From: Candidatus Nanopelagicales bacterium
GTDB lineage: Bacteria > Actinomycetota > Actinomycetes > S36-B12 > UBA10799
Direction: 5' to 3'
Length of the DNA: 64,000 bases
Assembly (NCBI GenBank): GCA_041393775.1
Contig: JAWKJM010000003.1
Coordinates: 187,185 to 251,184, forward strand
Part shown: one piece after another, positions 1,518-23,251 of the stretch
How positions within the stretch are numbered: the first letter of the stretch is position 1
Layout of the letters: each line of letters opens with the position of its first letter
Notes under the pieces: generated by a model
What the model was told of the DNA's origin: nothing
The model's input: only the letters and a program-made list of their open reading frames with translations
The model's database searches: none
Made by a program: the position numbers and the translations under genes

Positions 1518-1792
1518 CCGTCGGTGGTCGTGGCCGGCTGCGGCGTTCTGACGGGAAGAACATCGGGCGGAAATCGGTCGCGTCGGTGGTCCATGGCCGT
1601 GGCCGGCCGCCCTTTAGGCCGGGAAATGCCGGGCGGAAACCGCTCGGGTTAGAGAACGTGCACGAGGTTAGAGAAACCACACGTGCGTTCACTAACCTCG
1701 TGCACAATCTCTAACCTCGCGACCATTCTCTAACCTCGCGGCCAACTCCCACGACCGCCGAGCACACGGGCCGCCGTCGGACTACCAGTCCT
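1518..1792 (-). repeat. Mosaic palindromic intergenic repeat, copy 1 (inverted relative to the other copies)
   Basis: 28-nt arms at 1648-1675 and 1688-1715 (25/28 complementary), CACGTG-containing loop, extra CGAGGTTAGAGA iterons, and two ~60-nt CCGCCC...GGGCGG modules at 1518-1647. Confidence 0.85.
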
Positions 1793-2139
1793 TGGGCCAT
1801 CGGCAGTTAGCCCGGTTGAGGGCGACGATCTGGGCGGGATGTGCCAGACCCGCCATGTCGTGCTGCTGGGGACTACCCCGTCGGCCCAGGGCATGCACTG
1901 CCCAACAGACGGACCGGCACCTGGGAGAAGCGCCAAGCTGAGCCCCGGGATGCTGCATTCCGCAGGCGCAAGGCGGGCGGTTCGGGGCGTTGCACCGCTC
2001 TTGATTCCTTGGCGGCGTGGCACCCAACGACCTGACCCGGACACAGGATAGGGACGAATGGGTGGGCACGCCGTGGCACCAACACGCACCCGCCCGCATC
2101 GAGGTGTGGCCACAAGCGCTTCCTAACGCTCGTAGGCGC

Positions 2140-2562
2140 TCAGGCGGCCAGCGGACTGCCCGGGAGGTTGCGGGCGACAGTGAACACCACGAAGGCGACG
2201 CCCCAGATCAGGGCCCACCGCGACCCCGGCCGCTTGAAGACCGCGTACAGGAGGAACAGGACCCCAGGGATGAGCAGCAGGTTGTGCCCGACGGCCTCAG
2301 TGACGTTGCCTCGAGCCAGATCGTGCAGGCCACGCAGGGAGCCACATCCTGGGCAGTCCAGGCCGAGCAGTGCCTGCGTCGGGCACACCGCCCAGGACCC
2401 CGATCGATGCGGATCCCGGATGGACACGGCCACCGCGAGGGCGAGCACCAAGCCCAACGGCATCAGTCCCGGCCCGGCGCGGCCCAGGATGCCCGCCGGA
2501 TGCTTCCCTGCATCTGCGGCCGGTACCCCGGTCGCCCCGGATAGGGGGCTCGGTGACTGCAC
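2140..2562 (-). CDS. DUF2752-family membrane protein
   Basis: CPGCGSLRG motif plus TM helices; sits immediately downstream of a CD225 gene, a common pairing. Confidence 0.7.
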   Translation of the reverse strand: MQSPSPLSGATGVPAADAGKHPAGILGRAGPGLMPLGLVLALAVAVSIRDPHRSGSWAVCPTQALLGLDCPGCGSLRGLHDLARGNVTEAVGHNLLLIPGVLFLLYAVFKRPGSRWALIWGVAFVVFTVARNLPGSPLAA

Positions 2563-2566
2563 GTCC

Positions 2567-2890
2567 TCAGTAACCGTTGCTGCCGGCCAGCACGCCGAGG
2601 ATCACGACGAAGACGAGGTATGCCACGATCAGGACGCCACCCACGACTGCAGCCCAGATGCTCCACTTCTTGGCGCTGTCCGCCGCCTGCTGGGCTTGCG
2701 CGTACTGGCCCGCCGCGTACAGCGAATCGACCTTACTCGCGTACACGATCGCGGCGATGCCGAACGGAAGGCAACAGAACAGTGTGGTGAGGATCGCCCA
2801 CACCAGGTTGTTGTTCGGCTTCGGTGCCATGCCCATGGGTTGTCCACCCTGGGGACCCGGCGGAGGCGGCGGGGGCGCGTTGTAGGACAT
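2567..2890 (-). CDS. CD225/dispanin-family small membrane protein
   Basis: Pro-rich N-terminus, then WAILTTLFCCLPFGIAAIVYASKV motif; start placed at ATG 2890 (MSYNAPPPPP). Confidence 0.75.
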   Translation of the reverse strand: MSYNAPPPPPPGPQGGQPMGMAPKPNNNLVWAILTTLFCCLPFGIAAIVYASKVDSLYAAGQYAQAQQAADSAKKWSIWAAVVGGVLIVAYLVFVVILGVLAGSNGY

Positions 2891-3231
2891 GGATCTGACC
2901 TTCCCGACAAGGTGACTGATGGCCACGAGTGCTGCGGCACTTCGTGCGCCCGACCCTAGCAGCGCTGGGACCCCCTGATGCGCGCCGAAGCGGGGTGGTG
3001 TGTCGTGGCGAGCCAGAAACGGTGGTGGCGGTCCAGCAGCGCGCCCGTGGGTCCGCCTCCGCTATCTGACCCGGGCATCCCGCCATGCGGCCCCTAAGTA
3101 CCGCCGCCCGCACGCCGCAAACGGTGAGGCCGACCCGGGCCATCGGCCGCCCAAGGACCGTAGGCTCGATGGCAGCAGGGCGGAGGCCGGCGTCATGCGC
3201 CGCAACACGCATCGCCCGGCTGGAGGTGGAC

Positions 3232-4083
3232 ATGACAGGGGTAGCCGCCGCGCTCGTCGCCGCCATCCTCTTCTCGCTCGGCGGGGTCCTGCAGCACCGA
3301 AGCGTCGCCGCCCATGCCAGTGACGCCTTCGACGCCGGGGGCATGCTCCGGGGTGTCCGGCGGCCGATCTGGTGGCTCGGCCTCGGTGTGCAGGCGATGG
3401 CCGTGGCAGTCCAACTCTTCGCCCTTTCACAGGCGCCGCTGGCCACGGTCCAGACGGTGATGGCGACCATGGTCATCTGGGTCCTTGCGTGCGCAGTGAT
3501 GCTGGAACGGGTCCGACCCAGCAGGCCCGACTACTTCGGGTCCGCGCTCGTCGGAGCCGGCGTGGTCGCCTTCGTCCTGGTGACCCGCAGCGCCTCGCAG
3601 GGTTCCCGGGTGGATGCTAGGGCCTGGGTCTTCGCCACAGCGGGGTGCGTGGCGTGCGCGGGCATCGCGATCGCCGTCGCCCGGGCCCTCCCGCCGGGCC
3701 CCGCAGCCGCTGTGCTCGGTGGTGCCGCCGGAGTGGTCAATGTCCTGGGGGCGGGACTGGCCGGGGCCGCGATCCTGCTGGGCGAGCAGGCCGGCGCAGC
3801 CGTGGTCTTCGGTTCCTGGTTGCCCTACGGCGCGCTGGCGGTCTCGCTGGCCAGCATCGCGGTGACGGTCATGGCCTTCGCTGCCGGCCCGGTGACTGCT
3901 GCCATCCCGCCCATGATCGCGGCCAACCCCGTGGTCGGGTCGGCGTTAGGCGTCCGGCTGCTCGGACAGTCCTGGGCCGGCGGCCCCGCGATGACCGTGC
4001 CGGTCGCCCTCGCCCTCGCTGTCATGATCTGCGGCATCGTCGTGCTCGCTCGCTCCCCCATCGTGGCGGAGCAGATGGCATGA
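3232..4083 (+). CDS. Polytopic membrane protein, DMT/EamA-like
   Basis: About 9-10 predicted TM helices; ATG at 3232; its stop overlaps the next gene's start (ATGA). Confidence 0.55.
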   Translation: MTGVAAALVAAILFSLGGVLQHRSVAAHASDAFDAGGMLRGVRRPIWWLGLGVQAMAVAVQLFALSQAPLATVQTVMATMVIWVLACAVMLERVRPSRPDYFGSALVGAGVVAFVLVTRSASQGSRVDARAWVFATAGCVACAGIAIAVARALPPGPAAAVLGGAAGVVNVLGAGLAGAAILLGEQAGAAVVFGSWLPYGALAVSLASIAVTVMAFAAGPVTAAIPPMIAANPVVGSALGVRLLGQSWAGGPAMTVPVALALAVMICGIVVLARSPIVAEQMA

Positions 4084-6602: not shown

Positions 6603-8090
6603 TCACAGGTCATTGCCGGCGTAGGACTGGTTGAAGCTCTTGTTGGCCAGCGGGAAGTCGGGGACGATCGTGTCGGCCAGCGCGACGGGGAGCGCCGGCC
6701 AGTTGAAGAAGGACGGGTCGACGACCTTCACGCGGCTGAGTCGGCCCTCAGCGTCGAGTTCAACCCTGTGACACAGCGTCCCGCGCCATGCCTCCACGAC
6801 ACCGACCCCTGCCGCTGCGAGTGTCCGTCCCTGGGCCTGGTCGCGAGCGTGGGTTGGCCCGCCGAGTCGGCCGGTCAGGGCGCTGACCAGACTCGCTGAC
6901 ATCGCGGCCTCGCGGGCGCGGACAACGAATCGGCCTCGGACGTCACCGGTGTGCTCGACGGCAGGCACGAAGGCCTCGTCCAGGTGGACGAAGGGATGGT
7001 CAGCCCGCGCGTCGACGGCAAGGCCGCTCGCGCGGCCCACATAGCCGAGCACGCCGAGGTGCTCGGCCTGCTGGGCGGCAAGCACCGCCGTGCCCGAGAA
7101 GCGGTCTGCCACCACGGGATGATCGAGAGTGATGCCCACGATCTCGGCCGTCTCCTGGGCCACGGCGCGAATCAGGGCGACATCGGGCAGCGACGCGAGC
7201 CTGGCCCCGCCGATCGTAATGCCTCCCCGGAGGAGTCGGTGGCCGGTGAGCGACTTGTTGTGGCGCAGGAGTTGCTCGCGTAGCCGCTGGGTGTGGGCGT
7301 GCGCGATGCCGAAGCCGACGTCGTTCGCGATCGCTCCCAGGTCGCTGACGTGGTTGTACAAACGCTCGAGCTCCAGCAACAGGGCGCGGGCAATGCGGGA
7401 CTGCTCGTCCACCTCGATTCCGGCGGCATCCTCGACTGCCAGTGCGTAGGCGAGTCCGTGGCCCACCGCGGTGTCACCGCTGATCCGTTCCGCCAGTTCC
7501 ATCCCCTCGACGGGGGTGCTGCCCTCGAACAGCTTCTCGACGCCACGGTGGACGAACCAGAGGCGCGCCTTCATCCGCAGGATGGTTTCGCCAACGACGG
7601 AGAACCGGAAATGCCCCGGCTCGATGAGCCCGGCGTGGACCGGGCCGACGGGGATCTCGTAGACACCGTCGCCTTGCACCTCGACGAAGGGGTAGGAAGC
7701 GATGTCGCGTTCGAACCGGGGAGTGGGGTCGGCCCCGCGGAGCATCGGGTACCAGCCGGTGGGCCAATGCCCGTGTCGCACCATCCGGTAGGGCAGCGGG
7801 TGCCCGTGCGGCCGGATGCCGTACAGGTCGCGGACCTCGCGTTCGAAGCGGCCCGCTGGGTAGGACAGCCCCGCCAGGGTCGGCACCCAGGGATCGTCGC
7901 GCGCGACGGCGACGACGAGCTCGCGACGCTGGTTGACCGGGCGGAGGAAGAGGTACACCACCCGGAGGTGGTCCTCGTCTTCGTGTGCGGCGACCAGGCC
8001 GAGCCTCCATCTCTGCGCGAACAGGCGGGCCACCTCCCCGACCAGGTCGTCTCGGCGGACTTCGACCCGTTCAGTGACCGCGCGGCTCAC
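6603..8090 (-). CDS. hycE: NuoC/NuoD-fusion, HycE-like large subunit of a group-4-hydrogenase-related complex; NiFe cysteines absent
   Basis: VGPVHAGLIEPGHFRF and WFVHRGVEKL motifs; GTG 8090 overlaps the upstream TGA (GTGA); only one Cys in the whole protein. Confidence 0.85.
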   Translation of the reverse strand: MSRAVTERVEVRRDDLVGEVARLFAQRWRLGLVAAHEDEDHLRVVYLFLRPVNQRRELVVAVARDDPWVPTLAGLSYPAGRFEREVRDLYGIRPHGHPLPYRMVRHGHWPTGWYPMLRGADPTPRFERDIASYPFVEVQGDGVYEIPVGPVHAGLIEPGHFRFSVVGETILRMKARLWFVHRGVEKLFEGSTPVEGMELAERISGDTAVGHGLAYALAVEDAAGIEVDEQSRIARALLLELERLYNHVSDLGAIANDVGFGIAHAHTQRLREQLLRHNKSLTGHRLLRGGITIGGARLASLPDVALIRAVAQETAEIVGITLDHPVVADRFSGTAVLAAQQAEHLGVLGYVGRASGLAVDARADHPFVHLDEAFVPAVEHTGDVRGRFVVRAREAAMSASLVSALTGRLGGPTHARDQAQGRTLAAAGVGVVEAWRGTLCHRVELDAEGRLSRVKVVDPSFFNWPALPVALADTIVPDFPLANKSFNQSYAGNDL

Positions 8091-9529
8091 GACAGCCCAC
8101 CCAGCGCCGCCGCGGCGGCCTCGACCACAGGTGCGAGCGGCCAGGCGGCAAAGCCGAACACCGCCGTGACGCTGAGGGCCAGCACGAGTGGCAGTCGCCG
8201 ACCCGCGGGGCCTCCGGCACTGCTCGGCCCGTCCGCTGGAGGGCCCATCGTCATGGCCAGGACGTGGCGGCCAAATCCGACGAAGACGACCAGCAGCAGC
8301 AACAGGGCAATGCCCATAGCCCAGCCCAAGCCCCGCGACCAGCCGGCGAACACGATGGCGACCTCGGTGAAGAACAGTACGAAGGGCGGGAGCCCCAGCA
8401 AGGCTGCAGACCCGGCCAGGAAGGGGCGCGCCACGTCCGGCCTGCGCGCGAGCAGGGCATGGACGTCTTCGATCTTGGTAGAGCCCGCGTCGTCGAGGAT
8501 GCGGCCCGCGACGACGAACATCACGGCCTTGGACAAACCGTGCCCCAGCACATGCAGCAAGACCGCCGCGGTCGCCAGTGGCCCACCCACGGCCGCGCCG
8601 AGGGCGAGGATGCCCATGTGCTCGATGCTCGAGTACGCCAGCAGGCGCTTGTAGTCGCGCTGGGCGAGCATGAGACCAGCCGCGATCGCCAGCGAGAGGA
8701 GGCCGCCGACGACTAGCAGGCCTCGCATGAAGGTCGGACCCAGGGTCGCCTCGCTGACCGCCTGCACCCTGAGGATGGCGGAGAACGCCACCGACAGCAG
8801 AACCCCTGACATCAGCGCCGACACCGGCGCCGGGGCTTGGCTGTGCGCGTCGGGCAACCACGAGTGGAGGGGGGCCAGGCCCGCCTTGGTGGCAAACCCG
8901 AGGGCAGCCAAGGCCACTGCGATGCGCGCCAGGCCGGGGTCGAGAGACGGACCCAACGCCACCAGCTCGGCCCACGACAAGGTCGGGCTGCCCGCGGAGC
9001 GAGCCGCGGCGTAAAGCAGCACGATCCCGAGGAGCGCGATGGCCACCCCGACGGACCCCAGCACGACGTACTTCCACGCTGCCTCCAGAGCGGCTCGGCC
9101 GCCGTGGTGGCCGACGAGGAAAGCCGTGGCGATCGTCGTCGCCTCGACAGCAACCCAGACCACACCCAGGTTGTCCGCCAGCACCGCAAGGCTCATCGCA
9201 CCCAGGAAGAGCGCCACGAGCGCGGCGTAGCGCCCGTCCGGCTTCACTGTCGACGTCGGTGTCGGAAGTCCGCCCCATAGGGCCGTGACTGCCACGGCAC
9301 CAATCACCGCCAGCATGAAGGCGGCGAACGCATCCGCGCGCAACAGCCCCCCTACGGCGCTGACAGTTCCAGAGCGCTGGACGGACGCGACCAGGCCGAC
9401 CCCGCACGTGAGCACGAGCACGGCGACCACCAGGTCGGCCAGTCGGGTCCACCGACGGCCCCGAGCCATCACCGCGGCGCCGGCGATCAGCACGGGCACG
9501 ACGACGGGCAGCCAGACCAGCGCGACCAT
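8087..9529 (-). CDS. hycQ: NuoN/NuoM-like antiporter subunit (HycQ/HyfF-like)
   Basis: Polytopic, with GLAPLHSWLPDAHSQAP proton-pump motif; ATG 9529 overlaps the upstream TGA. Confidence 0.85.
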   Translation of the reverse strand: MVALVWLPVVVPVLIAGAAVMARGRRWTRLADLVVAVLVLTCGVGLVASVQRSGTVSAVGGLLRADAFAAFMLAVIGAVAVTALWGGLPTPTSTVKPDGRYAALVALFLGAMSLAVLADNLGVVWVAVEATTIATAFLVGHHGGRAALEAAWKYVVLGSVGVAIALLGIVLLYAAARSAGSPTLSWAELVALGPSLDPGLARIAVALAALGFATKAGLAPLHSWLPDAHSQAPAPVSALMSGVLLSVAFSAILRVQAVSEATLGPTFMRGLLVVGGLLSLAIAAGLMLAQRDYKRLLAYSSIEHMGILALGAAVGGPLATAAVLLHVLGHGLSKAVMFVVAGRILDDAGSTKIEDVHALLARRPDVARPFLAGSAALLGLPPFVLFFTEVAIVFAGWSRGLGWAMGIALLLLLVVFVGFGRHVLAMTMGPPADGPSSAGGPAGRRLPLVLALSVTAVFGFAAWPLAPVVEAAAAALGGLS

Positions 9530-10188
9530 CAGTCCCTCAACTCCCTCAGGTCGTCCAGGTCGGTACCTCCGGTGGCGACCTGCATCCGGCTGGTGAGAAC
9601 ACGCAGGATGAGCACGACCAGCAACACGTCGAGGCTCACACCAAGCTCGACGACGAGCGGGACCCCTCCGGCGGTCAGGAACGCCACCGTGGCGATGCCG
9701 TTGTCGAGAACGACGAAGCCGATCAGCTGCGAGAGGGCACTGCGCCGGCTGAGCAGCACGAGGAAGCCGAGGAGTACCAGCGCGAGACCTACGGGGACTG
9801 CCCGTGCCTCCGGGCCGAGGTCGGCAGCGACGACCGGCTGGCTGACGGCGTAGGCGATCATGGTGAGGACAGCGGCCAGCAGCACTCCGGCGGTGGGGTT
9901 GAGCCGGGGACTGTCCTCGCGGGTGGCTCCGGTCAGACGGGCGACCCTGGACAGGACCCACGGCAGCGCACCTGCCTTGATGAGAAGGACCAGCCCGGAG
10001 ACGGCGACGACTTCGAGCTCACCATCCGCAACCCCGATCGTGGCAACCAGTCCGGCCAGCGCAGCCCCCTGCACGGCCAGCAGCCGGATCGAGGCATGGA
10101 GCGAGCGGCGCCAGACCTGCAACACGGCGGTGAGGAGGAGCAGCCCGGTGGTGGCAGCCACCAGTTGAGCGAACAACGCGTCGGACAT
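9529..10188 (-). CDS. hycP: HyfE/NuoK-like small membrane subunit (HycP-like)
   Basis: 220-aa hydrophobic protein between the HycD- and HycQ-like genes, the same position as Rv0085. Confidence 0.7.
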   Translation of the reverse strand: MSDALFAQLVAATTGLLLLTAVLQVWRRSLHASIRLLAVQGAALAGLVATIGVADGELEVVAVSGLVLLIKAGALPWVLSRVARLTGATREDSPRLNPTAGVLLAAVLTMIAYAVSQPVVAADLGPEARAVPVGLALVLLGFLVLLSRRSALSQLIGFVVLDNGIATVAFLTAGGVPLVVELGVSLDVLLVVLILRVLTSRMQVATGGTDLDDLRELRD

Positions 10189-10196
10189 GATCCCCC

Positions 10197-11147
10197 TCAC
10201 GCCACCAGGTACGACGCCGTCACGGCGAGGAACGCCAGAACGAACGAGCCGGCCAGGAGCTCGGGGACCCGGAACAGCCGCACCTTGGCCAGGAACACCT
10301 CCGCTGCGGCGACCAGCGCACCTGCGAGGAGAACCTTGGCGGTCACCGCCGCCGTGCCCACCAGGACGGCGAACGCCGTGGCCTCGGTGGCGACCCCCCA
10401 GGGGAGCAGCAGGTTCACGACCAGCCCCAGCAACGCGGTCAGCCGCAGCCAGGACCCGAGCTCGAGCCAGCCCAGGTCTCGTCCTGCGCTCTCCAGCACC
10501 ATGGCCTCGTGCACCATCGTCAGCTCGAGGTGAGTGGCGGGGTTGTCGACCGGCAATCGGCCTGTCTCGGCCAGCACGACCAGCACCAGCGCCACGATGG
10601 CCAGAAGGCTCACAGGAGAGACCACCGAGGCCGGGTCGTCGATCCTGGCGGCTACGATCGCCGACAGCGCAGAGGTCCCCACCGGGATGGACAGGGCATA
10701 GACGGCCACGAGCACGGTCGGCTCCACGAGTCCCGCGATCGTCATGTGCCGACTGGACCCCATGCCGCCGAAGGCCGTCCCTGACTCGAGCCCGAGCAGG
10801 GCCAGCGCAACCGTCCCGACCAGCAGCACGGACACGACCACGAACAGGTCGTCCGGCACGAGCCGCATCGTCGGTGTCCCGACGAGGGGGACGAGGGCGC
10901 AGACGAGAAGGCTGGACACCACGAGCACCAGCGGCGTCGCGGACAGAAGCGGACCTGAGCCGGCGGCTCGCATGGGCTCCTTGCGCAGCAGCTTGCGGAC
11001 GTCCCTCCACGGCTGCGCCACCCCGGCGCCGACGCGGCCCTCCATGCGCGCACGCACCTGTCGCATGACACCGACCAGGACAGGCGTGAGGAGCACCGCC
11101 ACCGCTACCTGGGCAGCCACGATAAAGCCAAGCTCGACGGTCACCAC
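10197..11147 (-). CDS. hycD: NuoH/HycD-like membrane subunit
   Basis: 316-aa polytopic protein; GTG start 11147 overlaps the upstream stop (GTGGTGA). Confidence 0.8.
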   Translation of the reverse strand: MVTVELGFIVAAQVAVAVLLTPVLVGVMRQVRARMEGRVGAGVAQPWRDVRKLLRKEPMRAAGSGPLLSATPLVLVVSSLLVCALVPLVGTPTMRLVPDDLFVVVSVLLVGTVALALLGLESGTAFGGMGSSRHMTIAGLVEPTVLVAVYALSIPVGTSALSAIVAARIDDPASVVSPVSLLAIVALVLVVLAETGRLPVDNPATHLELTMVHEAMVLESAGRDLGWLELGSWLRLTALLGLVVNLLLPWGVATEATAFAVLVGTAAVTAKVLLAGALVAAAEVFLAKVRLFRVPELLAGSFVLAFLAVTASYLVA

Positions 11148-13144
11148 GTCACCGCCAGCAGCACGACGACCAGTGCGCCGAAGGAGAAGGCGAGGTAGCG
11201 GTGGATGCTGCCGTTCTGGATGCGTCGCGCGATGGTGCCGAGACGCTCCAGCGTTGCCACCACGGGTGTGTAGGCCCGCTCCTCCACCACGTCTACGAGT
11301 TGTTGATGGAACTCCACGCGCTGTACCAGGTAGCGGGACTCCTCGGCATGGCCAACCGTCACGTCACGACTCGGCTGGAGCGCGTCGTCGAAGACCCGGA
11401 CGAGCGGCTCGGCGTAGGAGGTGGCTGTGTACTGCATGCGCGGGCTCAGCCGTACCCCGCCGCAACCCCAGGCCAGGTCGACGTCTCGGCGCGGCCTACG
11501 ACGGGCCAGCCGGGCCTGGACGACCCCGACCGGCACCGCCACGGCTGCCGCGAGCAGCAGCAGTGCGACAGGGTCGAGCAGCGCGTCCGCGGCCGGGAGA
11601 TCCAGCCCGAGCAGGCCCACGGTGCCGATGCCCTCAGCGCCGACGGCGGCACCGAGTGCCGAGGCCACTGGTCCCGGAGCGAGTCCGAGAGCGATCACGC
11701 CGGCCGCGCCTGCCGCCATCGCTGCGCGCATCGAGACCGACGCCTCATGGGCGTTAGCAGCGCCGTCAGAGCGTGGCCGGGCCAAGAACGCGATGCCGTA
11801 GGCCTTGACGAAGGTCAACAACGCCAGCCCGGCCGTCAGGGCGACCACCGCAACCGTCACCGGCAGGGCCACGGCGACGAGACGGTCTACTTGCCCATCC
11901 CCATGGATGAGCGACTGCAGCAGCGTCCACTCGGCGACGAACCCCGACGAGACTGGAAGTGCGGCCGCCCCCACTGCCGCGACTGCGAACACCGCCGACG
12001 TCGTCGGCATAGCACGACCCAGACCCCCCATCCGGTCCAGGTCACGTTCACCCGTGCCGTGCAGCACTGACCCGGCTCCCATGAAGAGCGAGGTCTTGAA
12101 GGCAGCGTGGCTCACCACGAGAAGGAGGGCAGCAACCCAGGCGATGTCGGCGACCTGGTCCTGCCCCGCGTCACGAAGCAGCATCGCGACGGCCACGGCC
12201 GTCACCATCAGCCCGACGTTCTCGGTGGTCGAGTATGCGAGGAGTCGCTTGAGGTCGCTGGTCACCGACGCCTGCAGGATGCCGAACAGGGCAGACGCCG
12301 CCCCGAGTACCAGCAGCAGCACCGCCCACCAGCGTGGCCCTGCGGGCAGCAGTCGCACGACCACCAGCAGCACGCCGTAGACACCCATCTTCACCATGGC
12401 GGCACTCATCGCCGCAGACACGTGGCTCGGCGCCTCCGGGTGGGCCCGCGGCAGCCACACGTGCATCGGCACCAGACCCGCCTTGGTGCCGAAACCCAGC
12501 ACCAGCAGCACGAAAGCCGTGCTCGTGGCCGCACTCGACGTCCCGGCAGGGTCGGCGAAGGACGTGCCACCCGCCGATGACGCCAGCACTGCGAACCCGG
12601 CGAGCAGAAGCACGAAGCTCAGGTGCGTCATGCCGGCGTACCACACTGCCGCCGACCGCACCTGAGGGCGAGCAGTGTGGTCTGCCAGCAGCAGCACGCT
12701 CGACCCGACAGCCATCACCTCCCACGCCAGCAGGAACGACACCGAGTCGGCGGCAGCCGGCACCATCTGCATGCCGAGCAGGAACACCACGAAGGCCGTC
12801 CAGCCCGTCCGGGACGCGGCTGGGCCGTGGGCATAGCCGATGCCGTAGATGGCGGCCAGCGCTCCGACGCCACCGGCCACGACCATGAAGACGCCGCCGA
12901 GCCGGTCCGGCGCGAGCACCAGCGGGTCGAGAGGCAGTTGCACCGGCAGGGATACGGGGATCTGCAACCGTCCTCGGTCACCCAGCAGCGCCATCAGCCC
13001 GGTCACGACGCCGGACAACCCCAGCGCAGCGGCCGCCGTGCCGGCGGCGACCGATCTCACCCGCGGGCGCGGGAGTACGGCGGCCAGCACGGCGACAACG
13101 GCGAGCACGGGCTGGGCGACCAGCCCGGCGGTGACCGGGCTCAC
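11141..13144 (-). CDS. NuoL/HyfB-like antiporter subunit
   Basis: Polytopic with GLVPMHVWLPRAHPEAPSHVSA motif; GTG 13144 overlaps the TGA of the small-subunit gene. Confidence 0.85.
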   Translation of the reverse strand: MSPVTAGLVAQPVLAVVAVLAAVLPRPRVRSVAAGTAAAALGLSGVVTGLMALLGDRGRLQIPVSLPVQLPLDPLVLAPDRLGGVFMVVAGGVGALAAIYGIGYAHGPAASRTGWTAFVVFLLGMQMVPAAADSVSFLLAWEVMAVGSSVLLLADHTARPQVRSAAVWYAGMTHLSFVLLLAGFAVLASSAGGTSFADPAGTSSAATSTAFVLLVLGFGTKAGLVPMHVWLPRAHPEAPSHVSAAMSAAMVKMGVYGVLLVVVRLLPAGPRWWAVLLLVLGAASALFGILQASVTSDLKRLLAYSTTENVGLMVTAVAVAMLLRDAGQDQVADIAWVAALLLVVSHAAFKTSLFMGAGSVLHGTGERDLDRMGGLGRAMPTTSAVFAVAAVGAAALPVSSGFVAEWTLLQSLIHGDGQVDRLVAVALPVTVAVVALTAGLALLTFVKAYGIAFLARPRSDGAANAHEASVSMRAAMAAGAAGVIALGLAPGPVASALGAAVGAEGIGTVGLLGLDLPAADALLDPVALLLLAAAVAVPVGVVQARLARRRPRRDVDLAWGCGGVRLSPRMQYTATSYAEPLVRVFDDALQPSRDVTVGHAEESRYLVQRVEFHQQLVDVVEERAYTPVVATLERLGTIARRIQNGSIHRYLAFSFGALVVVLLAVTW

Positions 13145-13632
13145 CGCCCGGTGACCTGACGCAGCGCGGCCACGATCTGGTCGGGCTCCGGCGGGCATCC
13201 CGGCACGGTCAGGTCTACGGGGACCACGTCGTCGACGGCGCCGGCCACACCGTAGCCCCCTGCGAAGGCTCCGCAGTCGCGGGCACAGTCCCCCACCGCC
13301 AGCACCACTCGAGGCCGTGGGGTCGCGTCCACCGTGCGTCGCAGCGGCTCGGCCATGTTTCTCGTCACGACCCCTGTGACAAGGACGACGTCGGCGTGCC
13401 GAGGCGAGGCAACCAGCCGAGCCCCGAAGCGCTCGACGTCGTAGACCGGCCCGAACGCCGCTCCCACCTCGATCTCGCAGCCGTTGCAGGAGCCGGCATC
13501 GACGTGACGCACCTGCACGCTGCCCCGCAACTCCCCCGGAGGCTCAAACCCCGCCTGCTTCGGCGTCGTCGGAGCCGCCTCGGCCACGCGACCGGTGCGC
13601 TGGATCAGCCGGGCCAGGCTCCAGCTGCTCAC
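13141..13632 (-). CDS. NuoB/HycG-like [4Fe-4S] small subunit
   Basis: GSCNGCE, GDCARDCG and PGCPP cysteine motifs; GTG 13632 overlaps the ArsR gene's stop. Confidence 0.85.
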   Translation of the reverse strand: MSSWSLARLIQRTGRVAEAAPTTPKQAGFEPPGELRGSVQVRHVDAGSCNGCEIEVGAAFGPVYDVERFGARLVASPRHADVVLVTGVVTRNMAEPLRRTVDATPRPRVVLAVGDCARDCGAFAGGYGVAGAVDDVVPVDLTVPGCPPEPDQIVAALRQVTGR

Positions 13633-13976
13633 GACGGCCGACCTCGGGTCGGCGCCAACTCATGCTTGAGGGCGTCCTGGTCGGCGATCATCTGGCTGAG
13701 CAGTCGACGTGCCGCCAGCAGCAGCTCGCGCGTCTCGGGGACCAGCAATGAGTACACGACCTCGCCCCCAACTCTTTGCTGGCGGACGAGACCAGCGCGC
13801 CGCAGAACCGCAAGCTGCTGGGACAGACTGCTCGGCTCCATCTTCAGCTCGACCAGCAACTCGTGGACGGCGTGATCCCGCTCGCTTAGCAGCTCGAGCA
13901 CCCTGATCCGCGCGGGGTGCCCGAGAGCGCGGAACAACTCGGCCTTGGTCTCGTACAGAGGGACTGGCACGCTCAC
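13629..13976 (-). CDS. ArsR/SmtB-family transcriptional regulator (Rv0081-like position)
   Basis: ELFRALGHPARIRVLELL winged-HTH motif; start placed at GTG 13976, 5 nt after GGAAGG (the ORF extends to 14006). Confidence 0.8.
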   Translation of the reverse strand: MSVPVPLYETKAELFRALGHPARIRVLELLSERDHAVHELLVELKMEPSSLSQQLAVLRRAGLVRQQRVGGEVVYSLLVPETRELLLAARRLLSQMIADQDALKHELAPTRGRPS

Positions 13977-13991
13977 GCTCGCCTTCCGACT

Positions 13992-14005
13992 TGAACAACT
14001 GTTCA
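13992..14005. promoter_or_regulatory. 6-2-6 perfect inverted repeat TGAACA-AC-TGTTCA; candidate ArsR-type operator
   Basis: Palindrome lies 16-29 nt upstream of the proposed ArsR start codon; its half-site resembles SmtB/ArsR-type operators. Confidence 0.35.
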
Positions 14006-14164: not shown

Positions 14165-14421
14165 GTGAGGGGAGCACCGACCGTGGAGACCAGCCCGCTG
14201 AGCGTCCCCGCGTCGACCGACGCCGGCGTGCACGACGCCCGCCTCCACGACGCGCGCCACACCGCCGCCACCATCATGCTCGCCATGGGCGTGCCAGCCC
14301 GGGCCGTCATCAGATCCTCGGGCACAGCCAGACCACCCTCACCCTCGGCACCTACAGCCACGTCGAACCCGGGCTCGCCAGCGAAGCCGCCCAGCGCATC
14401 GGCCGCGCTCTTTGGGGCTGA
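14165..14421 (+). pseudogene. Decayed C-terminal remnant of a tyrosine integrase
   Basis: RLHDARHTAATIMLAMGVPARAV continues in another frame as QILGHSQTTLTLGTYSHV...ALWG-stop. This implies a frameshift near 14305-14315; the N-terminal ~250 aa are missing. Confidence 0.7.
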
Positions 14422-14499: not shown

Positions 14500-14542
14500 G
14501 AGCCGCCTCCGAGAATCGAACTCGGGACCTACGCATTACGAG
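14500..14542. repeat. att direct repeat (distal copy; duplicate of the tRNA-Thr 3' half)
   Basis: 43/43 identical to 23252..23294. Confidence 0.95.
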
Positions 14543-14728
14543 GCTTCCTAACGGCGTTCCGGTGGGTGTCTGGGCTCTACGTTCATGAGGAACCAACGGT
14601 GTTTCTGTTCCTCGGGTGCTCCCTAGTTGTCCAGGGTTAGTGACCTTTTTGTGACTCCCTACGACCCACGCGACCGCCCTCTCCCACTCCACCGACCTAG
14701 CAGCCGACGTTCTCGCTCAATGACGGAT

Positions 14729-15082
14729 CTAGCCCCGTGGGCTGTAGTTGCGGCGGAACCCGCCCCGGGACTGCGGTCGTTTCCCGGTCACCGGGTCAGG
14801 CATCCTCAGTACGCCGAGCAGGCGGACCAGAAGCGCCCGGAAGGTGCGGATCTGCGCTAGGCCCGGATGGGCACGCAGTCCATCCGGGCCCTGGACCATC
14901 AGGGCGTCGTCAACACTGGCATGCAGCTCGTCCAGGTGGTCCGCGACCCTGCACGCCTCCAGCAGCACGCGACGCATGGGGTTGTATTCGTCTTTGAGTG
15001 CCTCGTCGCGGCCGAGGCAGGCAGCCCACAACTCACGTCCCGAGGTGCCCAGGTCAGGCGGCGGGCTGACACGTCGGCCCAT
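14729..15082 (-). CDS. P27-family terminase small subunit-like protein
   Basis: Pattern ...GRELWAACL...LLEACRVADHLDELHASV...GLRAHPGLAQIRTFRALLVRLLGVLRMP matches my recollection of actinophage P27-type TerS; GAGGAGG RBS. Confidence 0.45.
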   Translation of the reverse strand: MGRRVSPPPDLGTSGRELWAACLGRDEALKDEYNPMRRVLLEACRVADHLDELHASVDDALMVQGPDGLRAHPGLAQIRTFRALLVRLLGVLRMPDPVTGKRPQSRGGFRRNYSPRG

Positions 15083-15347
15083 GAGCCGGTGACCTCCTCA
15101 AACCCGGGGTTCAGACAAATTCAGGTCTGCGAACTGCGAGCGACCTACCCCCGCGGAGTGGCGCCCCCACCCGGGGAGGGGGTGGGTCCGGTGGGGTGCC
15201 GGGGGGCCAGGCCGTTTCGGTCCGGCCCCCCGGGTGCCGTCGGCGGTACCCGGGCCCCGTGGTGGAAAGGACAAACACCGAGGCCCCCGGGTTCCCGACG
15301 GCGTGGGCCCGGCGCCGCGTGTTCCACTCACGCGACGCCGTGTGGTT

Positions 15348-15512
15348 TCAGAAGGTGTCCTCGTTCTCGCCGTCGGGTGCGCCCATGGGTACCCAGTGGC
15401 CCAGGGCGATCTGTTCTTCGAGCAGTCGTTGGGCTTCGGGTTTGCGGTCGACGCCGTCGACGTCGATGAGGTGGACGGCGCCGTTGCGGCCGCGGAACCA
15501 TTGCGGGGTCAT
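15348..15512 (-). CDS. Hypothetical small protein (54 aa), below the ORF-track cutoff
   Basis: ATG preceded by GAAGGAG; G/C-rich third positions; MTPQWFRGRNGAVHLIDVDGVDRKPEAQRLLEEQIALGHWVPMGAPDGENEDTF. Confidence 0.55.
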   Translation of the reverse strand: MTPQWFRGRNGAVHLIDVDGVDRKPEAQRLLEEQIALGHWVPMGAPDGENEDTF

Positions 15513-15542
15513 GTGTGCTCCTTCGGATTCTCGGTGGGGGGG

Positions 15543-16301
15543 TTAGCGTGCCCGCCGGGCGGCGTCGCCGGCGGCGTCGCCGGTCCGGTGGCGTTTGCGG
15601 GGCGGGCGTACGACGCCGCGATGCGTGCTGTCGGGCGCCGCGGGCTGGTCCGGCGCCGCGGGCGGTGGGGGCGCGTCGGGGCCGCGGCGGTGCAGGTAGG
15701 CCGTGACGCTGGCCATGGAGTCGAGCAGCGCGGCGCCACCGGCGAAGCCCTCGAACGGCATCGCGTCGCCGTCGGCCACGGCGAGCCCGCCGTAGTCGAC
15801 CGTCCGGGCCCCCGCGAGTTGCCGGGTGTGGAACGCCTGCATGCTGGCCGCACGCACCCAGCGGGCTTGTGCGGCGGTCAGCACGGCCAGCGCGTCGACG
15901 ACGTCCTGGCGGCGGGTCTGGCACTCCTGCGCCCAGCGGCGGGACTCGGCAGCGGCCGCCGTGCGCAGCTCGGCCTCCAGCCCGCCGGACAGCCATTCCA
16001 GGGCCAGGGCCCGGGCGTGGGCGGCCTCGTTCTGCCGGGCTACCTCCACGGCGTGTTCACGCTGGTCGATGTCGTCGTCGACGGACTGCGGGTCGTCGCC
16101 GTTGCGCACGGCGTCGGCGCGGGCGGCGTCGGCGCGCACCTTCGCCGCCTCGACGGCGCGGACCAGCGGGGCCACCGCGGCCTCGGCGTCGGCCAGGGCG
16201 GCCTGCATGGCGGTGAACTTCTCGACATGGGCGCGCAACGGTTCGGGGAACGCGTAGCCGGGCGGAAGCGTGATGTCGCGGGCGTTCTGGTGTCTCATCA
16301 C
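15543..16301 (-). CDS. Hypothetical protein, Ala-rich and predicted coiled-coil
   Basis: 252-aa ORF; its start overlaps the upstream stop (ATGA). Confidence 0.6.
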   Translation of the reverse strand: MMRHQNARDITLPPGYAFPEPLRAHVEKFTAMQAALADAEAAVAPLVRAVEAAKVRADAARADAVRNGDDPQSVDDDIDQREHAVEVARQNEAAHARALALEWLSGGLEAELRTAAAAESRRWAQECQTRRQDVVDALAVLTAAQARWVRAASMQAFHTRQLAGARTVDYGGLAVADGDAMPFEGFAGGAALLDSMASVTAYLHRRGPDAPPPPAAPDQPAAPDSTHRGVVRPPRKRHRTGDAAGDAARRAR

Positions 16302-16519
16302 CGGCCCGCCTTCCGTGCGGCGTCACGGATCTCGTCGGCGGTGGCGAACCGCTCCCCGGCCGCCTCGAACGGCAGTGGGGCGCGCCCGGACTTCAGTACC
16401 TGGAACTGGCCGAGCCGGTTGGCGTCGACGCGTTGCTGGTCGTCCATGGCGAGCATCTGCTCGCGGGTCAGTTGCGGCGGGATGGCCCCGTCGGGCCGGT
16501 AGTAGTTGTCTTCTTCCAT
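16298..16519 (-). CDS. Hypothetical protein
   Basis: 73-aa ORF with AAGGAGAAG RBS. Confidence 0.6.
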   Translation of the reverse strand: MEEDNYYRPDGAIPPQLTREQMLAMDDQQRVDANRLGQFQVLKSGRAPLPFEAAGERFATADEIRDAARKAGR

Positions 16520-16620
16520 CGGTTCTTCTCCTTGTCGAGGTTGCGTGTGATGGATCGGGCGAATGTCTCGTCATGGGGTGGCCGCGGCCTGTCGCGGCCG
16601 TAGGTGCGTCTGGGCATTGA

Positions 16621-16782
16621 TCACCCCCCTCCGGTGCCGTCGTAGGCGGGGTCGGTCAGTCCGGGGATCCGGTCGAGGGGATCACGGTGATCCGGGCAGT
16701 AGCCGCCGAGCGGCCAGGGACCGAGGAACGGGCACGCGGGCTCCGCACACCGGCGGATCGGCAGTGCGTCTCGAAGGGTCAT
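16621..16782 (-). CDS. Hypothetical Cys-rich small protein (53 aa), possible zinc ribbon
   Basis: ATGA overlap with the upstream gene; CAEPAC...CPDH spacing; below the ORF-track cutoff. Confidence 0.5.
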   Translation of the reverse strand: MTLRDALPIRRCAEPACPFLGPWPLGGYCPDHRDPLDRIPGLTDPAYDGTGGG

Positions 16783-17195
16783 AGTTCGTCGTCCTCCTCA
16801 GGTGACATGTACGGGGTGGGCCGGGGGACCGGGGTCCCTTGCCCGTTCTCGAGGCGGGGCCACGGAACGAGCGCGTAGATCCCCGCTTTCCCGGCGAGCG
16901 GCAAGCCGCGCTGGACGGCCTTGGTCGCGGCGAGCGGGGTCGCGAACGGTCCGAGGATCAGCGGCCGCCGGGAGTTCTCGAGGACCAGGACCACGACGTA
17001 CCGAGGACGATCGGAGTCGCGAGCCGACAGGATCCGTGCGGCGATCGCCTCGGCGGTCTTCGGATGGATCTCGGCCCCAACGAACTCGCGTACCGCTTCG
17101 TGCGCCGCGTCACAGTGGGCCTTGAGCACGCGGGTATCCAGCAACGGGCCCACCCGGTACGGCACTCCATTGGCGGGAGCAGTAGAAGTTGTCAC
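16779..17195 (-). CDS. Hypothetical protein
   Basis: 138-aa ORF, coupled at both ends to its neighbours. Confidence 0.6.
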   Translation of the reverse strand: MTTSTAPANGVPYRVGPLLDTRVLKAHCDAAHEAVREFVGAEIHPKTAEAIAARILSARDSDRPRYVVVLVLENSRRPLILGPFATPLAATKAVQRGLPLAGKAGIYALVPWPRLENGQGTPVPRPTPYMSPEEDDEL

Positions 17196-18502
17196 GACGA
17201 ACCTCCGGTCCCGAATGCCTCCCGGAGCGTGGTCTCAGGCGACGGTTCGGACGGTTGGGACGGTTCGGACGCTTCCTGAGAAGGGGTAGGGGGGACTGAG
17301 GGGAGGTAGCGGTCCCATGCATCGGCGAAGGCGAACCGGAGGTATCCGCGTGCCGTGTTCGCGGCGTTGTGGCTCGGTGTGACCCGGTACGGGTGCAGGA
17401 TCCGGGCCAGCCGGTGCGGCGTGAGCCCGCGCTCCCCGTAGGGGCCTCCCGGGGTCCAGGGTCCGTCCTCGATCGCGTGCAGCTGGAGGAGGAGGTCCCG
17501 GCTGGAGACCCACTCCTTGCCGTGCGGCCAGGTCTCCCGGATCTCGCGGAGAAGCCGGATCGGGATCGTTTCGACCTCGAGGGTCTCGGTGAGTACCGAG
17601 ACCGCCTCGCGGGCTTCCTCGGGCCAGTCGCCGCCGGCCGCGTCAGCGATCGCGAGCAACGGCTCCCACACGTCGAGCAGTCGGTCCGCGATCCCCGGCT
17701 CGTCGTCGGGAAACACGGGCTTCCAGGGCCGGGAGGCCCACTCTGCGACCCGGTCGCGCAGCGCGTGGCCCTCCGGTACCGAGGTCGCGACGCGCCAGCG
17801 ACGGACCGTTTCGGAGGGTTTGCGCTTGCGGATCCGGACCACCACCGAGCGATCGAGGATCGTCTCCGGGGGATCGCCGTTGCCCGCCAGCGCCACGGCC
17901 GCGAACGTCTCGAACGGCTCGACCTCGAAGGCCTTCCCGACGCACCGCAGGACCGGGTTCCCGCGACGGTATCCCGCGTTCACGATCCCCCGGACCGCAT
18001 CGCCGGAGTCCGCGCTCGAGCGGAAGATCACGTCGTACTCGTCCAGGAGCAACGTAGGCGCGCGCTTCTCGATCGCCCGGTACAACGTGGCCGCGCTCAC
18101 GTCGGCCGCACGGAGCGGATCCTTGACCGTGGTCTCGAGGATCTCCAGGAGGCGGGTCTTCCCCGATCCCTTCTCGGCGCTGGAGACCGCCAGCCGCGCG
18201 GTCGAGTCGAATCGGTCGATCGTGTGGCTATGCACGATCCACAGCGCGATCGCCTTCGCGGCGTACGGGCTCGGGAGTACCGCGTGGCCGTTTACGAAGT
18301 CCTCGAGGTCCGCGAGGATCCCGTGGAGTTCCCGGTCACTTGGGACATTGGTACTAGTAGCACCACTCTCACCTTCGTAAGAAGAAGAGGCGGGAGCGTC
18401 CGAATCCTGGTCCCCTACCCTCCCTGACACTTTCCCAGAAAGCGTCCCAAGCGTCCGAATCGTCCGGTCCGTCGAGCGTTTAGCCATTCCGGACCCCCGC
18501 AT
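17192..18502 (-). CDS. DUF3631-family protein (P-loop; usual partner of PrimPol in actinobacterial integrated elements)
   Basis: SSAEKGSGKTRLLEIL Walker-A-like motif and LLLDEYD; alternative start at ATG 18487. Confidence 0.75.
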   Translation of the reverse strand: MRGSGMAKRSTDRTIRTLGTLSGKVSGRVGDQDSDAPASSSYEGESGATSTNVPSDRELHGILADLEDFVNGHAVLPSPYAAKAIALWIVHSHTIDRFDSTARLAVSSAEKGSGKTRLLEILETTVKDPLRAADVSAATLYRAIEKRAPTLLLDEYDVIFRSSADSGDAVRGIVNAGYRRGNPVLRCVGKAFEVEPFETFAAVALAGNGDPPETILDRSVVVRIRKRKPSETVRRWRVATSVPEGHALRDRVAEWASRPWKPVFPDDEPGIADRLLDVWEPLLAIADAAGGDWPEEAREAVSVLTETLEVETIPIRLLREIRETWPHGKEWVSSRDLLLQLHAIEDGPWTPGGPYGERGLTPHRLARILHPYRVTPSHNAANTARGYLRFAFADAWDRYLPSVPPTPSQEASEPSQPSEPSPETTLREAFGTGGSS

Positions 18503-19367
18503 CGAGCCCGGACCGGACGGTCGCGTGGATCTCCTGCTCGGTGAGCGGTCCGCGGTCTCCTTCGTCCTCAGACAAAGAATGGTGTGCCGTGGCGATGAGC
18601 CAGGATTCCGCCTGGTCGTACTCGATCCGTCCGGCCGCGACGTGCTTCCCGAGCCGGTAGGCCGCGACGTTCAGGGCGTGGTTTCGCTCTCCCGGCTTCG
18701 CGAGCATGAGCCGGTGCCGCTCCCCGAGGAGCACGGCCTCCAGGTACGTCGAGGCGTTGCGGATCTCGACCTCGGGGAACGTGCGCCGATCGGCAGCCGG
18801 TTTCGGTCTCGCGATCAGATCGACGAGCCATTCGGGGGCCGGTGCGATCTGCGGCTCGAAGTCCTCCAGGTGCTCGAAGCCGTCCGGGCCGATCGCCACG
18901 GTCTCTTCGTACTGGGCTTCCGGAAGATACCGGGAGCCGTTGATCCGCGAGTACGGGGCCAGGACGTACCCGCCCGTGCCGCGTACATCGACTCCCGGCA
19001 GCATGCCGACGCGGTTCCCGAGGTCCTCGGAGGTCTGGAAGTACATGTGTGCACCTCCGCTCGGCGTGGCGACGGTGTAGGTCTCGGTCCAGCCCGGATC
19101 CGCACCCACCGAGTAGGCGTAGGCGTCGATCTCCGAGAAGCCGGATACCGCGTCATTGATATCCAGGTCGATCGCGACGAGCCCGGAGCCGGTCCGGATC
19201 CCGACATTGCAGGTCGGACCCTTCTCCCACCACGCGCTGATCCGATCGAGGTCTCCGGTCGCTGAGTCCACGCCGGAGCGAGTCGCCGGCCGTTTCCCGT
19301 TCGGTAGGACCGGGAGGATCGGCCAGCGACTCGCCAGCGTCAGAGCGACGCTCCGAAGCCGCATCAT
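18480..19367 (-). CDS. Bifunctional DNA primase/polymerase (Prim-Pol) domain protein
   Basis: WPILPVLPNGKRP...NVGIRTGSGLVAIDLD motifs. Confidence 0.8.
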   Translation of the reverse strand: MMRLRSVALTLASRWPILPVLPNGKRPATRSGVDSATGDLDRISAWWEKGPTCNVGIRTGSGLVAIDLDINDAVSGFSEIDAYAYSVGADPGWTETYTVATPSGGAHMYFQTSEDLGNRVGMLPGVDVRGTGGYVLAPYSRINGSRYLPEAQYEETVAIGPDGFEHLEDFEPQIAPAPEWLVDLIARPKPAADRRTFPEVEIRNASTYLEAVLLGERHRLMLAKPGERNHALNVAAYRLGKHVAAGRIEYDQAESWLIATAHHSLSEDEGDRGPLTEQEIHATVRSGLDAGVRNG

Positions 19368-19828: not shown

Positions 19829-19997
19829 GGTGAAGCGTCTTCCTTTCGTCGTGATGGAGGTCCCTCGAGACGGTCAGGTCTCGGGGGATCTTCTTCTTCG
19901 TGGTCCGGGTGAAGATCCCGGATCGCTCCCCGCCGAGGTCGCGAACCTCGAGGCGGCCGGTGCCGCGCGGGGATGGCCGGTCAAGCCGCCGGGACAC
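19806..19997 (-). CDS. Possible small basic protein overlapping both neighbours
   Basis: GTG-initiated 63-codon ORF with ~80% GC3 across the otherwise unassigned 19829-19980 gap. Confidence 0.3.
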   Translation of the reverse strand: MSRRLDRPSPRGTGRLEVRDLGGERSGIFTRTTKKKIPRDLTVSRDLHHDERKTLHHDRATPD

Positions 19998-20881: not shown

Positions 20882-20950
20882 GAGGTGAGTTCCTTTCTCT
20901 TCTTGGGTTAGGGCAAGCGGCGATCGGTCGGTCCGGTCGCCGCTTTCGTT

Positions 20951-21139: not shown

Positions 21140-21246
21140 GTGGGTTTTCCTCCTCTCTCGGGAAAGTTGTTCCTACAGGTCCCACAATGCGCTATGGTCT
21201 GAGATATGGATAGTCTCATTCATGGTCCTAATGCTGAGAGCACCCG

Positions 21247-23247: not shown

Positions 23248-23251
23248 GCCT

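Follow-up and report, generated by a model that had tools for sequence, protein, structure and literature searches.

A seven-gene operon for a predicted hydrogenase-related (Ehr-type) membrane complex without nickel-iron ligands in a Candidatus Nanopelagicales bacterium

Introduction

When an operon resembles that of a group 4 [NiFe] hydrogenase and its large subunit has none of the cysteines that hold the nickel-iron center, is the product still an enzyme of hydrogen metabolism, and if it is not, what may it do? This question is raised by a 64-kb stretch of DNA (64,000 nucleotides, referred to as the window throughout) from a Candidatus Nanopelagicales bacterium of the Actinomycetota (assembly GCA_041393775.1, contig JAWKJM010000003.1, positions 187,185 to 251,184), in which seven tightly packed minus-strand genes form an operon at positions 6603-13976 that encodes an ArsR regulator and six hydrogenase-like subunits. 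An earlier interpretation made from the letters of this DNA only (the sequence-only reading) had assigned the operon to the energy-converting hydrogenase-related (Ehr) class, had held that it cannot produce an H2-evolving enzyme, and had matched it to Mycobacterium tuberculosis Rv0081-Rv0087. The analysis reported here supports that assignment through alignment with HycE, a fold match, and cysteine-less motifs found across the whole family, and from these sequence comparisons we regard the Ehr identity and the lack of H2 chemistry as nearly certain.

Ehr complexes are defined as relatives of group 4 hydrogenases that lack the NiFe-coordinating residues and whose function is unknown; the name derives from the Ech-hydrogenase-related cluster of Geobacter, the subunits of which are abundant in formate-grown cells. 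In the M. tuberculosis gene list Rv0082 and Rv0083 are oxidoreductases, and Rv0084, Rv0085, Rv0086, and Rv0087 are hycD, hycP, hycQ, and hycE, respectively. Rv0081-Rv0087 has been termed an EHR complex and “not a functional hydrogenase” (PMC6728331), and a 2019 paper described its hyc genes as homologous to EHR complexes, while some of the literature still terms the locus a putative [NiFe] hydrogenase or formate hydrogenlyase (FHL). The Ehr reading of such loci, including Rv0081-Rv0087, is therefore already published, and the locus described here adds no new principle.

Results

The large subunit (EhrL; 6603-8090, 495 amino acids), a fused NuoC and NuoD/HycE-like protein, matched the Pfam families Complex1_30kDa, Complex1_49kDa, and NiFeSe_Hases. 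Group 4 [NiFe] hydrogenases hold their metal center through the cysteines of an L1 (RxCGxCxxxH) and an L2 (DPCxxCxx[HR]) motif, and the sequence-only reading had pointed to AERISGDTAVGH in place of the first and to a protein end of NQSYAGNDL-stop in place of the second. Both are present, and a HMMER alignment with Escherichia coli HycE (7z0s_E, E=6e-55) put both exactly at the CxxC sites, with RISGDT opposite RVCGIC and NQSYAG opposite DPCYSC; MbhL and Nqo4 were aligned as well. The four ligand positions, all of them non-cysteine, are Ser204, Thr207, Ser489, and Gly492. The only cysteine in the 495 residues, as had been counted, is C440, which is not conserved among relatives, and an examination of the rest of the protein for conserved cysteine ligands found none. 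Because all four NiFe cysteines are replaced, the large subunit, as judged from its sequence, cannot carry a NiFe(CO)(CN)2 center and cannot make or oxidize H2.

The end of the protein is in keeping with this replacement. The large subunit stops three residues past the last ligand position (...SYAGNDL-stop), and in the HMMER alignment its end coincides with the C-terminus of mature HycE, so that there is no C-terminal extension. The endopeptidase HycI cuts HycE three residues past the last ligand cysteine; on that rule the large subunit would offer an endopeptidase nothing to cut off. Elsewhere the hydrogenase scaffold is preserved, with both the IEPGHFRF loop and the HRGVEK (HRGxEK) motif in place. 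An AlphaFold model of the protein (predicted local distance difference test, pLDDT, 80.5; predicted template modeling score, pTM, 0.85) had HycE as its best fold match (TM 0.83, 30% identity), followed by E. coli NuoCD, and among the top matches to structures in the Protein Data Bank nothing was closer than HycE and nothing was identifiable as an Ehr complex.

The sequence-only reading had left room for the gene being a strain-specific mutant of otherwise cysteine-bearing orthologues. A scan of one genome per species returned a relative in at least 598 species, and the best 80 loci were used for the locus comparisons that follow. The 120 best database proteins span 64-100% identity to the large subunit; a simple motif search found [IV]SGD[TS] in 110 of these, and NKSFN[QL]SYAG[NH]DL is the C-terminal end of all but one (119/120); wherever the two motifs can be read in the 120 proteins, they are cysteine-free. 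No large subunit among the best 80 loci has a cysteine at any of the four ligand positions. Across these loci the first motif aligned as [RKS]-[IV]-[SA]-G-D-[TSN], and every one of the 77 readable C-termini was a cysteine-free N-K-S-x-x-x-[SN]-Y-[ASTP]-G-x-D-[LRV], the other three being lost to a contig end or a disruption (L020, L043, L047, and L054 are incomplete at one end or other). The 80 loci cover Actinomycetota (including Streptomyces, Nonomuraea, Mycobacterium, and Mycolicibacter), Acidimicrobiia, Rokubacteria, Chloroflexia, Nitrospirota, Acidobacteriota, Proteobacteria, candidate phyla radiation (CPR) bacteria, and two archaeal metagenome-assembled genomes (MAGs). The set that takes the place of the cysteines can be summed up as R-[IV]-S-G-D-[TS] and, at the protein end, N-K-S-F-N-x-S-Y-[AS]-G-x-D-[LRV]; its presence in all of the 80 loci and 120 proteins with readable motifs gives indirect support for a place in the Ehr clade, outside hydrogenase groups 4a-4i. 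On this comparison the cysteine loss is a trait of the family and not a mutation of one strain and, since the replacement residues are themselves conserved, the sequences point to selection on a new site and not to decay.

The gene set, order, and boundaries proposed by the sequence-only reading were the same in gene calls, Pfam, and NCBIfam: a codon-usage gene call on the window agreed with the seven genes, and an independent gene caller reproduced all seven product lengths on four other contigs that encode an identical large-subunit protein. Reading from the promoter-proximal end, the genes encode the ArsR regulator (13629-13976, 115 amino acids), a NuoB/HycG-like small subunit (EhrS; 13141-13632, 163 amino acids; Pfam Oxidored_q6, 8e-30), a HyfB/NuoL-like antiporter-like membrane subunit (11141-13144, 667 amino acids; Proton_antipo_M, 4e-49), a NuoH/HycD-like membrane subunit (10197-11147, 316 amino acids; NADHdh, 1e-30), a small HyfE-like membrane subunit (9529-10188, 219 amino acids), a HyfF/NuoN-like antiporter-like membrane subunit (8087-9529, 480 amino acids; Proton_antipo_M, 3e-50), and the large subunit, all on the minus strand. 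Pfam and NCBIfam were concordant for these assignments, the HyfE-like protein being seen by NCBIfam only. Coupling of the genes by start/stop overlaps had been described as GTGA, ATGA, or GTGGTGA with a single 8-nt gap, and this was correct at every junction except one. GTGA joins the regulator to the small subunit, the small subunit to the HyfB-like subunit, and the NuoN-like to the large subunit; GTGGTGA joins the HyfB-like to the NuoH-like subunit; and the 8-nt gap between the NuoH-like and HyfE-like genes has a GAGGGGG Shine-Dalgarno sequence ahead, with an alternative GTG at 10200 that would give a GTGA overlap. The HyfE-like/NuoN-like junction is TGATG, with a 1-nt overlap at 9529, and not ATGA. 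A simple terminator scan found no terminator 3' of the large-subunit gene.

In the small subunit the full cysteine set for one [4Fe-4S] cluster, of the hydrogenase type (CxxC...C...CPP), was retained as claimed. In the alignment with HycG and MbhJ, which are also the best solved-structure matches (HycG: 7z0s_G, 9e-34), the cluster ligands of both fall on C49, C52, C116, and C146. At least 63 of 69 relatives keep these four cysteines, and C120 is variable. The membrane arm is equally well preserved. E142, K221, H228, K350, and E405 of the HyfB-like subunit are invariant in 55/55 relatives, and E129, K215, H222, K334, and E389 of the HyfF-like subunit, whose best solved-structure matches are MbsH (6u8y_H) and MbhH (6cfw_H), are conserved in at least 66 of 68; we take these Glu/Lys/His/Lys/Glu sets to be the canonical channel residues of transmembrane helices 5, 7, 8, and 12 in NuoL/M/N-type subunits. 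Seven residues of the NuoH-like subunit (E142, E194, D201, E208, E214, E219, and K271) are likewise conserved in at least 62 of 63 relatives. Since the channel residues are invariant or nearly so, the ion-translocating apparatus appears, by sequence, to be under the same constraint as in working pumps. The HyfE-like protein had no Pfam match and was recognized by PRK11492, “hydrogenase 4 membrane subunit” (7e-23; 81.6 bits, below the 136-bit cut-off); its gene occupies the same position in nearly all relatives. The HyfB-like subunit scored 522 bits against NCBIfam hydrogenase 4 subunit B, for which the equivalog cut-off is 667 bits. As all NCBIfam Hyf matches of the operon proteins fell below the equivalog cut-offs, we consider the membrane proteins, on these scores, to be relatives and not orthologues of Hyf.

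The partners of a hydrogenase that had been called absent from the window were indeed not found there. When 53 of the window's 54 other called genes were scanned with Pfam, no hyp, molybdopterin/formate dehydrogenase, NuoI/HycF, or HycI family was detected, NuoEFG/NuoI families were seen neither in the operon nor among the other genes scanned, and no open reading frame (ORF) of at least 50 amino acids in the window has a CxxCxxCxxxCP motif. In an all-against-all clustering of the ORFs beside the 80 loci, no flanking neighbor recurred apart from ArsR and the ORFs antisense to it or in its alternative frames. L086, a 70%-identical relative, has a 736-amino-acid molybdopterin oxidoreductase (1600-3810; Molybdop_Fe4S4, Molybdopterin, and Molydop_binding domains; of a size like FdhF-type enzymes) immediately before arsR and in the same orientation. 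A link to formate through this enzyme was considered and rejected: tblastn found it beside no other locus and not in the window, and we regard the adjacency as chance.

The 80 loci fall into two architectures. The small subunit comes first (B-L-H-E-N-CD) in Actinomycetota, Acidimicrobiia, Rokubacteria, Chloroflexia, and some CPR bacteria, and last (L-H-E-N-CD-B) in Proteobacteria, Nitrospirota, Acidobacteriota, and archaea. Three acidobacterial loci have a 2x[4Fe-4S] ferredoxin-like domain with two CxxCxxCxxxCP motifs between the large and small subunits (L057, 10789-12039; L059, 11441-12316; L064, 1983-2855), which in L057 shares one ORF with the small subunit, and the two archaeal MAGs have, at the corresponding place, a ferredoxin-like domain with one such motif (L068, 2448-2795; L081, 11202-11549). 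Part of the cysteine-less family thus appears, from these motifs, to keep a HycF/NuoI-like module and, because these small-subunit-last loci keep it, loss of the ferredoxin subunit reads as a trait of the branch to which the window belongs and not of all relatives.

The match to M. tuberculosis Rv0081-Rv0087 was borne out by published gene order, by the regulator, and by related mycobacterial loci. The order is the same (regulator, small subunit, HyfB-like subunit, hycD, hycP, hycQ, hycE), and the comparison was made through loci of Mycobacterium persicum and other mycobacteria together with the Rv0081 crystal sequence. Regulators 75-82% identical to Rv0081 lie directly upstream in Mycobacterium sp. 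Lab-001 (L030), M. persicum (L016), and two MAGs (L028 and L043). The first two and L028 have the cysteine-less large-subunit motifs at both sites, and L043 has the first motif and a disrupted C-terminus; cysteine loss is thus common to the mycobacterial loci with Rv0081-like regulators. Mycobacterial large subunits are about 57-58% identical to the window protein (tblastn). The genes seen next to the window operon include no homologue of Rv0079, Rv0080, or Rv0088.

Other Ehr complexes are similar by description. The large subunits of Geobacter sulfurreducens (GSU0739-0745), Nitrospira, and Margulisbacteria likewise lack CxxC motifs, and these complexes likewise have a small Fe-S subunit and NuoL-like and HyfE-like membrane subunits. 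Relatives in Proteobacteria, Nitrospira, and Acidobacteriota differ in having the small subunit last and almost never an ArsR gene, whereas the window locus is small-subunit-first and ArsR-linked, an arrangement of Actinomycetota, Acidimicrobiia, and Rokubacteria. With E. coli FHL (Hyc, 7z0s) and hydrogenase-4 (Hyf) the window operon shares the fused NuoC-NuoD protein, the HycE fold, HycG-type ligands, and HycD-like, HyfB/F-like, and HyfE-like membrane subunits; unlike FHL, it lacks the NiFe cysteines and a C-terminal propeptide, and HycF/HycB ferredoxins, FdhF, HycI, and hyp were not found in the window. The Pyrococcus furiosus complexes MBH and MBS (Mbx; 6cfw, 6u8y) have homologous large, small, and antiporter-like subunits but many more subunits in all, including a NuoI-like ferredoxin subunit, and the window protein is less similar to them in sequence than to HycE. 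In MBH all NiFe cysteines are present and in MBS only some, the latter complex being a precedent for a hydrogenase-derived complex with a changed substrate. Complex I (NDH-1) has NuoB, C, D, H, and L/M/N-like subunits of common ancestry with the same conserved channel residues, whereas the window complex lacks NuoEFG, NuoI, NuoA, and NuoJ and its small subunit has the hydrogenase-type CxxC.

The regulator (Pfam HTH_5, 1.8e-11; NCBIfam HTH_metalloreg, 2e-21) has Rv0081 as its best solved-structure match (6jmi, E=3e-27), with the next match at 3e-10 and CzrA and SmtB far behind. Like Rv0081, it is free of cysteine and of a metal site: it lacks the alpha3 and alpha5 metal ligands, and the alpha5 positions, compared through the 6jmi alignment and the site list of the Rv0081 paper, are V79, E81, L92, and Q95 as against A79, D81, V92, and R95 in Rv0081. 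Of the four DNA-reading residues, S49, S52, and Q53 are unchanged and S48 is replaced by Pro. In L085, a relative with an 83%-identical operon, an ATG occupies the position of the arsR start codon, which supports that start. A regulator translationally coupled to the operon had been called unusual, which did not hold, as it is normal for the clade. An ArsR gene is linked to 37/50 small-subunit-first loci versus 1/20 small-subunit-last loci, in 25 of those 50 it is immediately upstream on the same strand, and a 4-nt stop/start overlap also occurs in L005, L006, L007, and L086. In L030 (4090-4395 and 11565-11870) and L043 (4051-4335 and 11581-11886) two ArsR paralogues flank the operon, the upstream copy being about 82% and the downstream copy about 58% identical to Rv0081, and the best ArsR match in L018, L019, L034, and L035 comes just after the large-subunit gene.

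A candidate operator, TGAACAGTTGTTCA, lies at 13992-14005 (minus strand), 16 nt upstream of the arsR start codon, and is a perfect 6-2-6 palindrome. It was confirmed by pattern search, since its arms, shorter than 8 nt, are below the reach of the inverted-repeat tool, and the window has no second perfect copy, with 0.06 matches expected at up to one mismatch. The palindrome is kept in L085, whose upstream DNA is otherwise unalignable, and its outer triplets and their spacing (TGA, 8 nt, TCA) equal those of the experimentally bound Rv0081 site TGATAAATTCTTCA; the upstream sequences of L028 and L043 nearly match the M. tuberculosis operator. Because the palindrome is unique in the window, conserved in L085, and similar to the bound Rv0081 site, we infer, reasonably in our view, that ArsR may repress its own operon from TGAACAGTTGTTCA. 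A copy with one mismatch, TGAACAGTTGCTCA, is found at 53441-53454 inside an ABC1 atypical-kinase-like gene (53307-54548, minus strand) and could be a second target of the regulator or chance.

The operon has an integration hot spot immediately upstream. An 8.75-kb element (14500-23294) has an exact 43-nt copy of the tRNA-Thr 3' end, in direct orientation, at each border (att copies at 14500-14542 and 23252-23294; tRNA-Thr at 23252-23326, minus strand) and holds a tyrosine integrase (22169-23155, plus strand), a Prim-Pol protein (18480-19271, minus strand), a DUF3631 protein (17192-18430, minus strand), and several small ORFs without a family match; the G+C content, about 69% for the window, is down to 0.63-0.66 across 18-24 kb. 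Between the att repeat and arsR lies a second tyrosine integrase, a frameshifted C-terminal remnant (14228-14421, plus strand; HDARHTAATIMLAMGVPARAV / QILGHSQTTLTLGTYSHV) that when stitched together matched Pfam Phage_integrase at 4.7e-10; its presence suggests that this tRNA had been a target of integration before. With no third att copy in the window, the idea that the operon lies within an older island there was not supported. The downstream context of L085 (8124-13351) is wholly different from that of the window, and its neighbors are rich in toxin-antitoxin and phage-type genes (Gp49/HI1420, RHH/PemK, HTH_17/PIN), which fits an operon residing in variable, mobile regions, as reported for the hyc locus, described as horizontally transferred several times among Actinobacteria. 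Elsewhere in the window, unlinked to the operon, are two more ion-motive components, an H+-translocating pyrophosphatase (771 amino acids, 40220-42535) and an NhaA-type Na+/H+ antiporter (423 amino acids, 57699-58970); the window also has Tad/Flp pilus genes at about 44.1-47.7 kb and a STAS and anti-sigma-kinase pair at 42.8-43.5 kb.

Discussion

Taken as a whole, these sequence data are best explained by an autoregulated operon for a six-subunit Ehr complex that couples redox chemistry to ion translocation without H2, an explanation that we consider probable. In build, the product would be a membrane complex that resembles a pared-down version of Hyf/Hyc formate hydrogenlyase or of complex I. 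Where the small, large, and NuoH-like subunits meet, a redox event would be coupled to the movement of H+ or Na+ through the membrane, or the reverse, and this element, redox-coupled ion translocation, we consider somewhat more likely than not. The operon encodes neither a ferredoxin subunit nor an input module; the [4Fe-4S] cluster might then take its electrons straight from a soluble low-potential carrier, for example ferredoxin. The acceptor might bind in the remodeled polar pocket, with menaquinone perhaps the most economical guess although the Tyr and His ligands of complex I are absent. By homology to Rv0081, ArsR, free of cysteine and of a metal site, would bind the candidate operator and keep its own operon repressed until a non-metal signal releases it; the literature on Rv0081 has suggested phosphorylation, or the binding of an anion or formate, as the release signal.

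Several observations weigh against this explanation. A simple scan revealed no sigma-70-like promoter for the operon, and no formate dehydrogenase, NuoEF, ferredoxin, or other partner gene is conserved beside it across the 80 loci. The absence of hyp genes and of an input module applies to the 64-kb window, and such genes may lie elsewhere in the genome. In the alignment with Thermus Nqo4 (2fug_4) the quinone ligands of complex I are replaced, by Gly at Tyr87 and Ile at His38. In the AlphaFold model the former active-site pocket (residues 127-181 and 489-495) has pLDDT values below 50, and since the pocket residues are of such low confidence we draw no claim about a cavity from the model. Any specific pair of donor and acceptor is a guess and is tentative at best.

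Among the alternatives, the one that survives best holds that the complex is a redox-gated cation/proton antiporter with an Mrp-like membrane arm, whose NuoB/NuoCD-like module would serve only as a [4Fe-4S] redox sensor. The antiporter-like subunits, with their channel residues intact, have the Mrp-related MbsH, MbhH, and MrpD as closest matches, and the lack of an input module, a ferredoxin subunit, and a conserved redox partner in cis is what such an antiporter would predict, as is the lack of recognizable substrate ligands, whether NiFe cysteines or the Tyr and His of a quinone site. However, conservation of the IEPGHFRF loop and of the residues at the former active site is as strong as in true enzymes, which seems more than a passive sensor scaffold would need, and the 2x[4Fe-4S] ferredoxin-like module of distant members argues for real electron throughput in the family. 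We therefore give the antiporter a minor chance and retain the redox-coupled Ehr complex as the better account.

A genuine H2-evolving group 4 [NiFe] hydrogenase or FHL, with unconventional ligands or with its maturation genes elsewhere, is suggested by kinship: the closest solved relative of each catalytic subunit is E. coli FHL, the membrane subunits are Hyf-like, the M. tuberculosis homologues still bear the annotations hycD, hycP, hycQ, and hycE and the label of a putative [NiFe] hydrogenase or FHL, and the Ehr subunits of Geobacter rise on formate. Yet the cysteine ligands have become Ser, Thr, Ser, and Gly and the sites are cysteine-free in every relative examined, the single remaining cysteine is non-conserved, there is no C-terminal extension, no hyp, hycI, fdhF, or HycF/HycB gene was detected among the window genes scanned, and M. 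tuberculosis, which bears the orthologous locus, is reported to be without hyp genes, all of which makes this alternative very improbable. A decaying, non-functional remnant of a hydrogenase operon left by horizontal transfer, to which the hot spot within 550 bp upstream (tRNA-Thr att repeat and integrase pseudogene) and the reported repeated transfer of the hyc locus among Actinobacteria might point, is just as implausible in view of seven intact, translationally coupled reading frames, relatives in those 598 or more species with invariant functional residues in all subunits, and replacement residues that are invariant instead of drifting.

A more specific proposal within the Ehr reading is that S-G-D-[TS], the C-terminal S-Y-[AS]-G-x-D, and the retained Glu and His of IEPGHFRF, as an invariant polar pocket in place of the NiFe site, form a new cysteine-free catalytic or cation-binding site, and that the complex of the small-subunit-first, ArsR-linked clade is a minimal six-subunit pump running from ferredoxin, or another low-potential carrier, to menaquinone; we consider this an outside possibility that is unlikely as it stands.

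Ehr complexes are widespread and stand at the evolutionary junction of hydrogenases and complex I, and in M. tuberculosis the operon is headed by the hypoxia-induced regulator Rv0081; in the literature that we searched there was no substrate, cofactor analysis, or structure for any of them. The locus offers three handles: a family signature at the former active site that is suited to mutagenesis, an actinobacterial clade that dropped a ferredoxin subunit which some distant members keep, and a clade-specific link to an Rv0081-type regulator with a recognizable candidate operator. It also calls for caution, as the automatic labels “Ni,Fe-hydrogenase III” and “NADH-quinone oxidoreductase subunit C” mislead the inference of H2 metabolism from metagenomes. 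If the proposal of a ferredoxin-menaquinone pump were true, the complex would be a route linking low-potential reductant to membrane potential in many Actinobacteria, including hypoxic M. tuberculosis.

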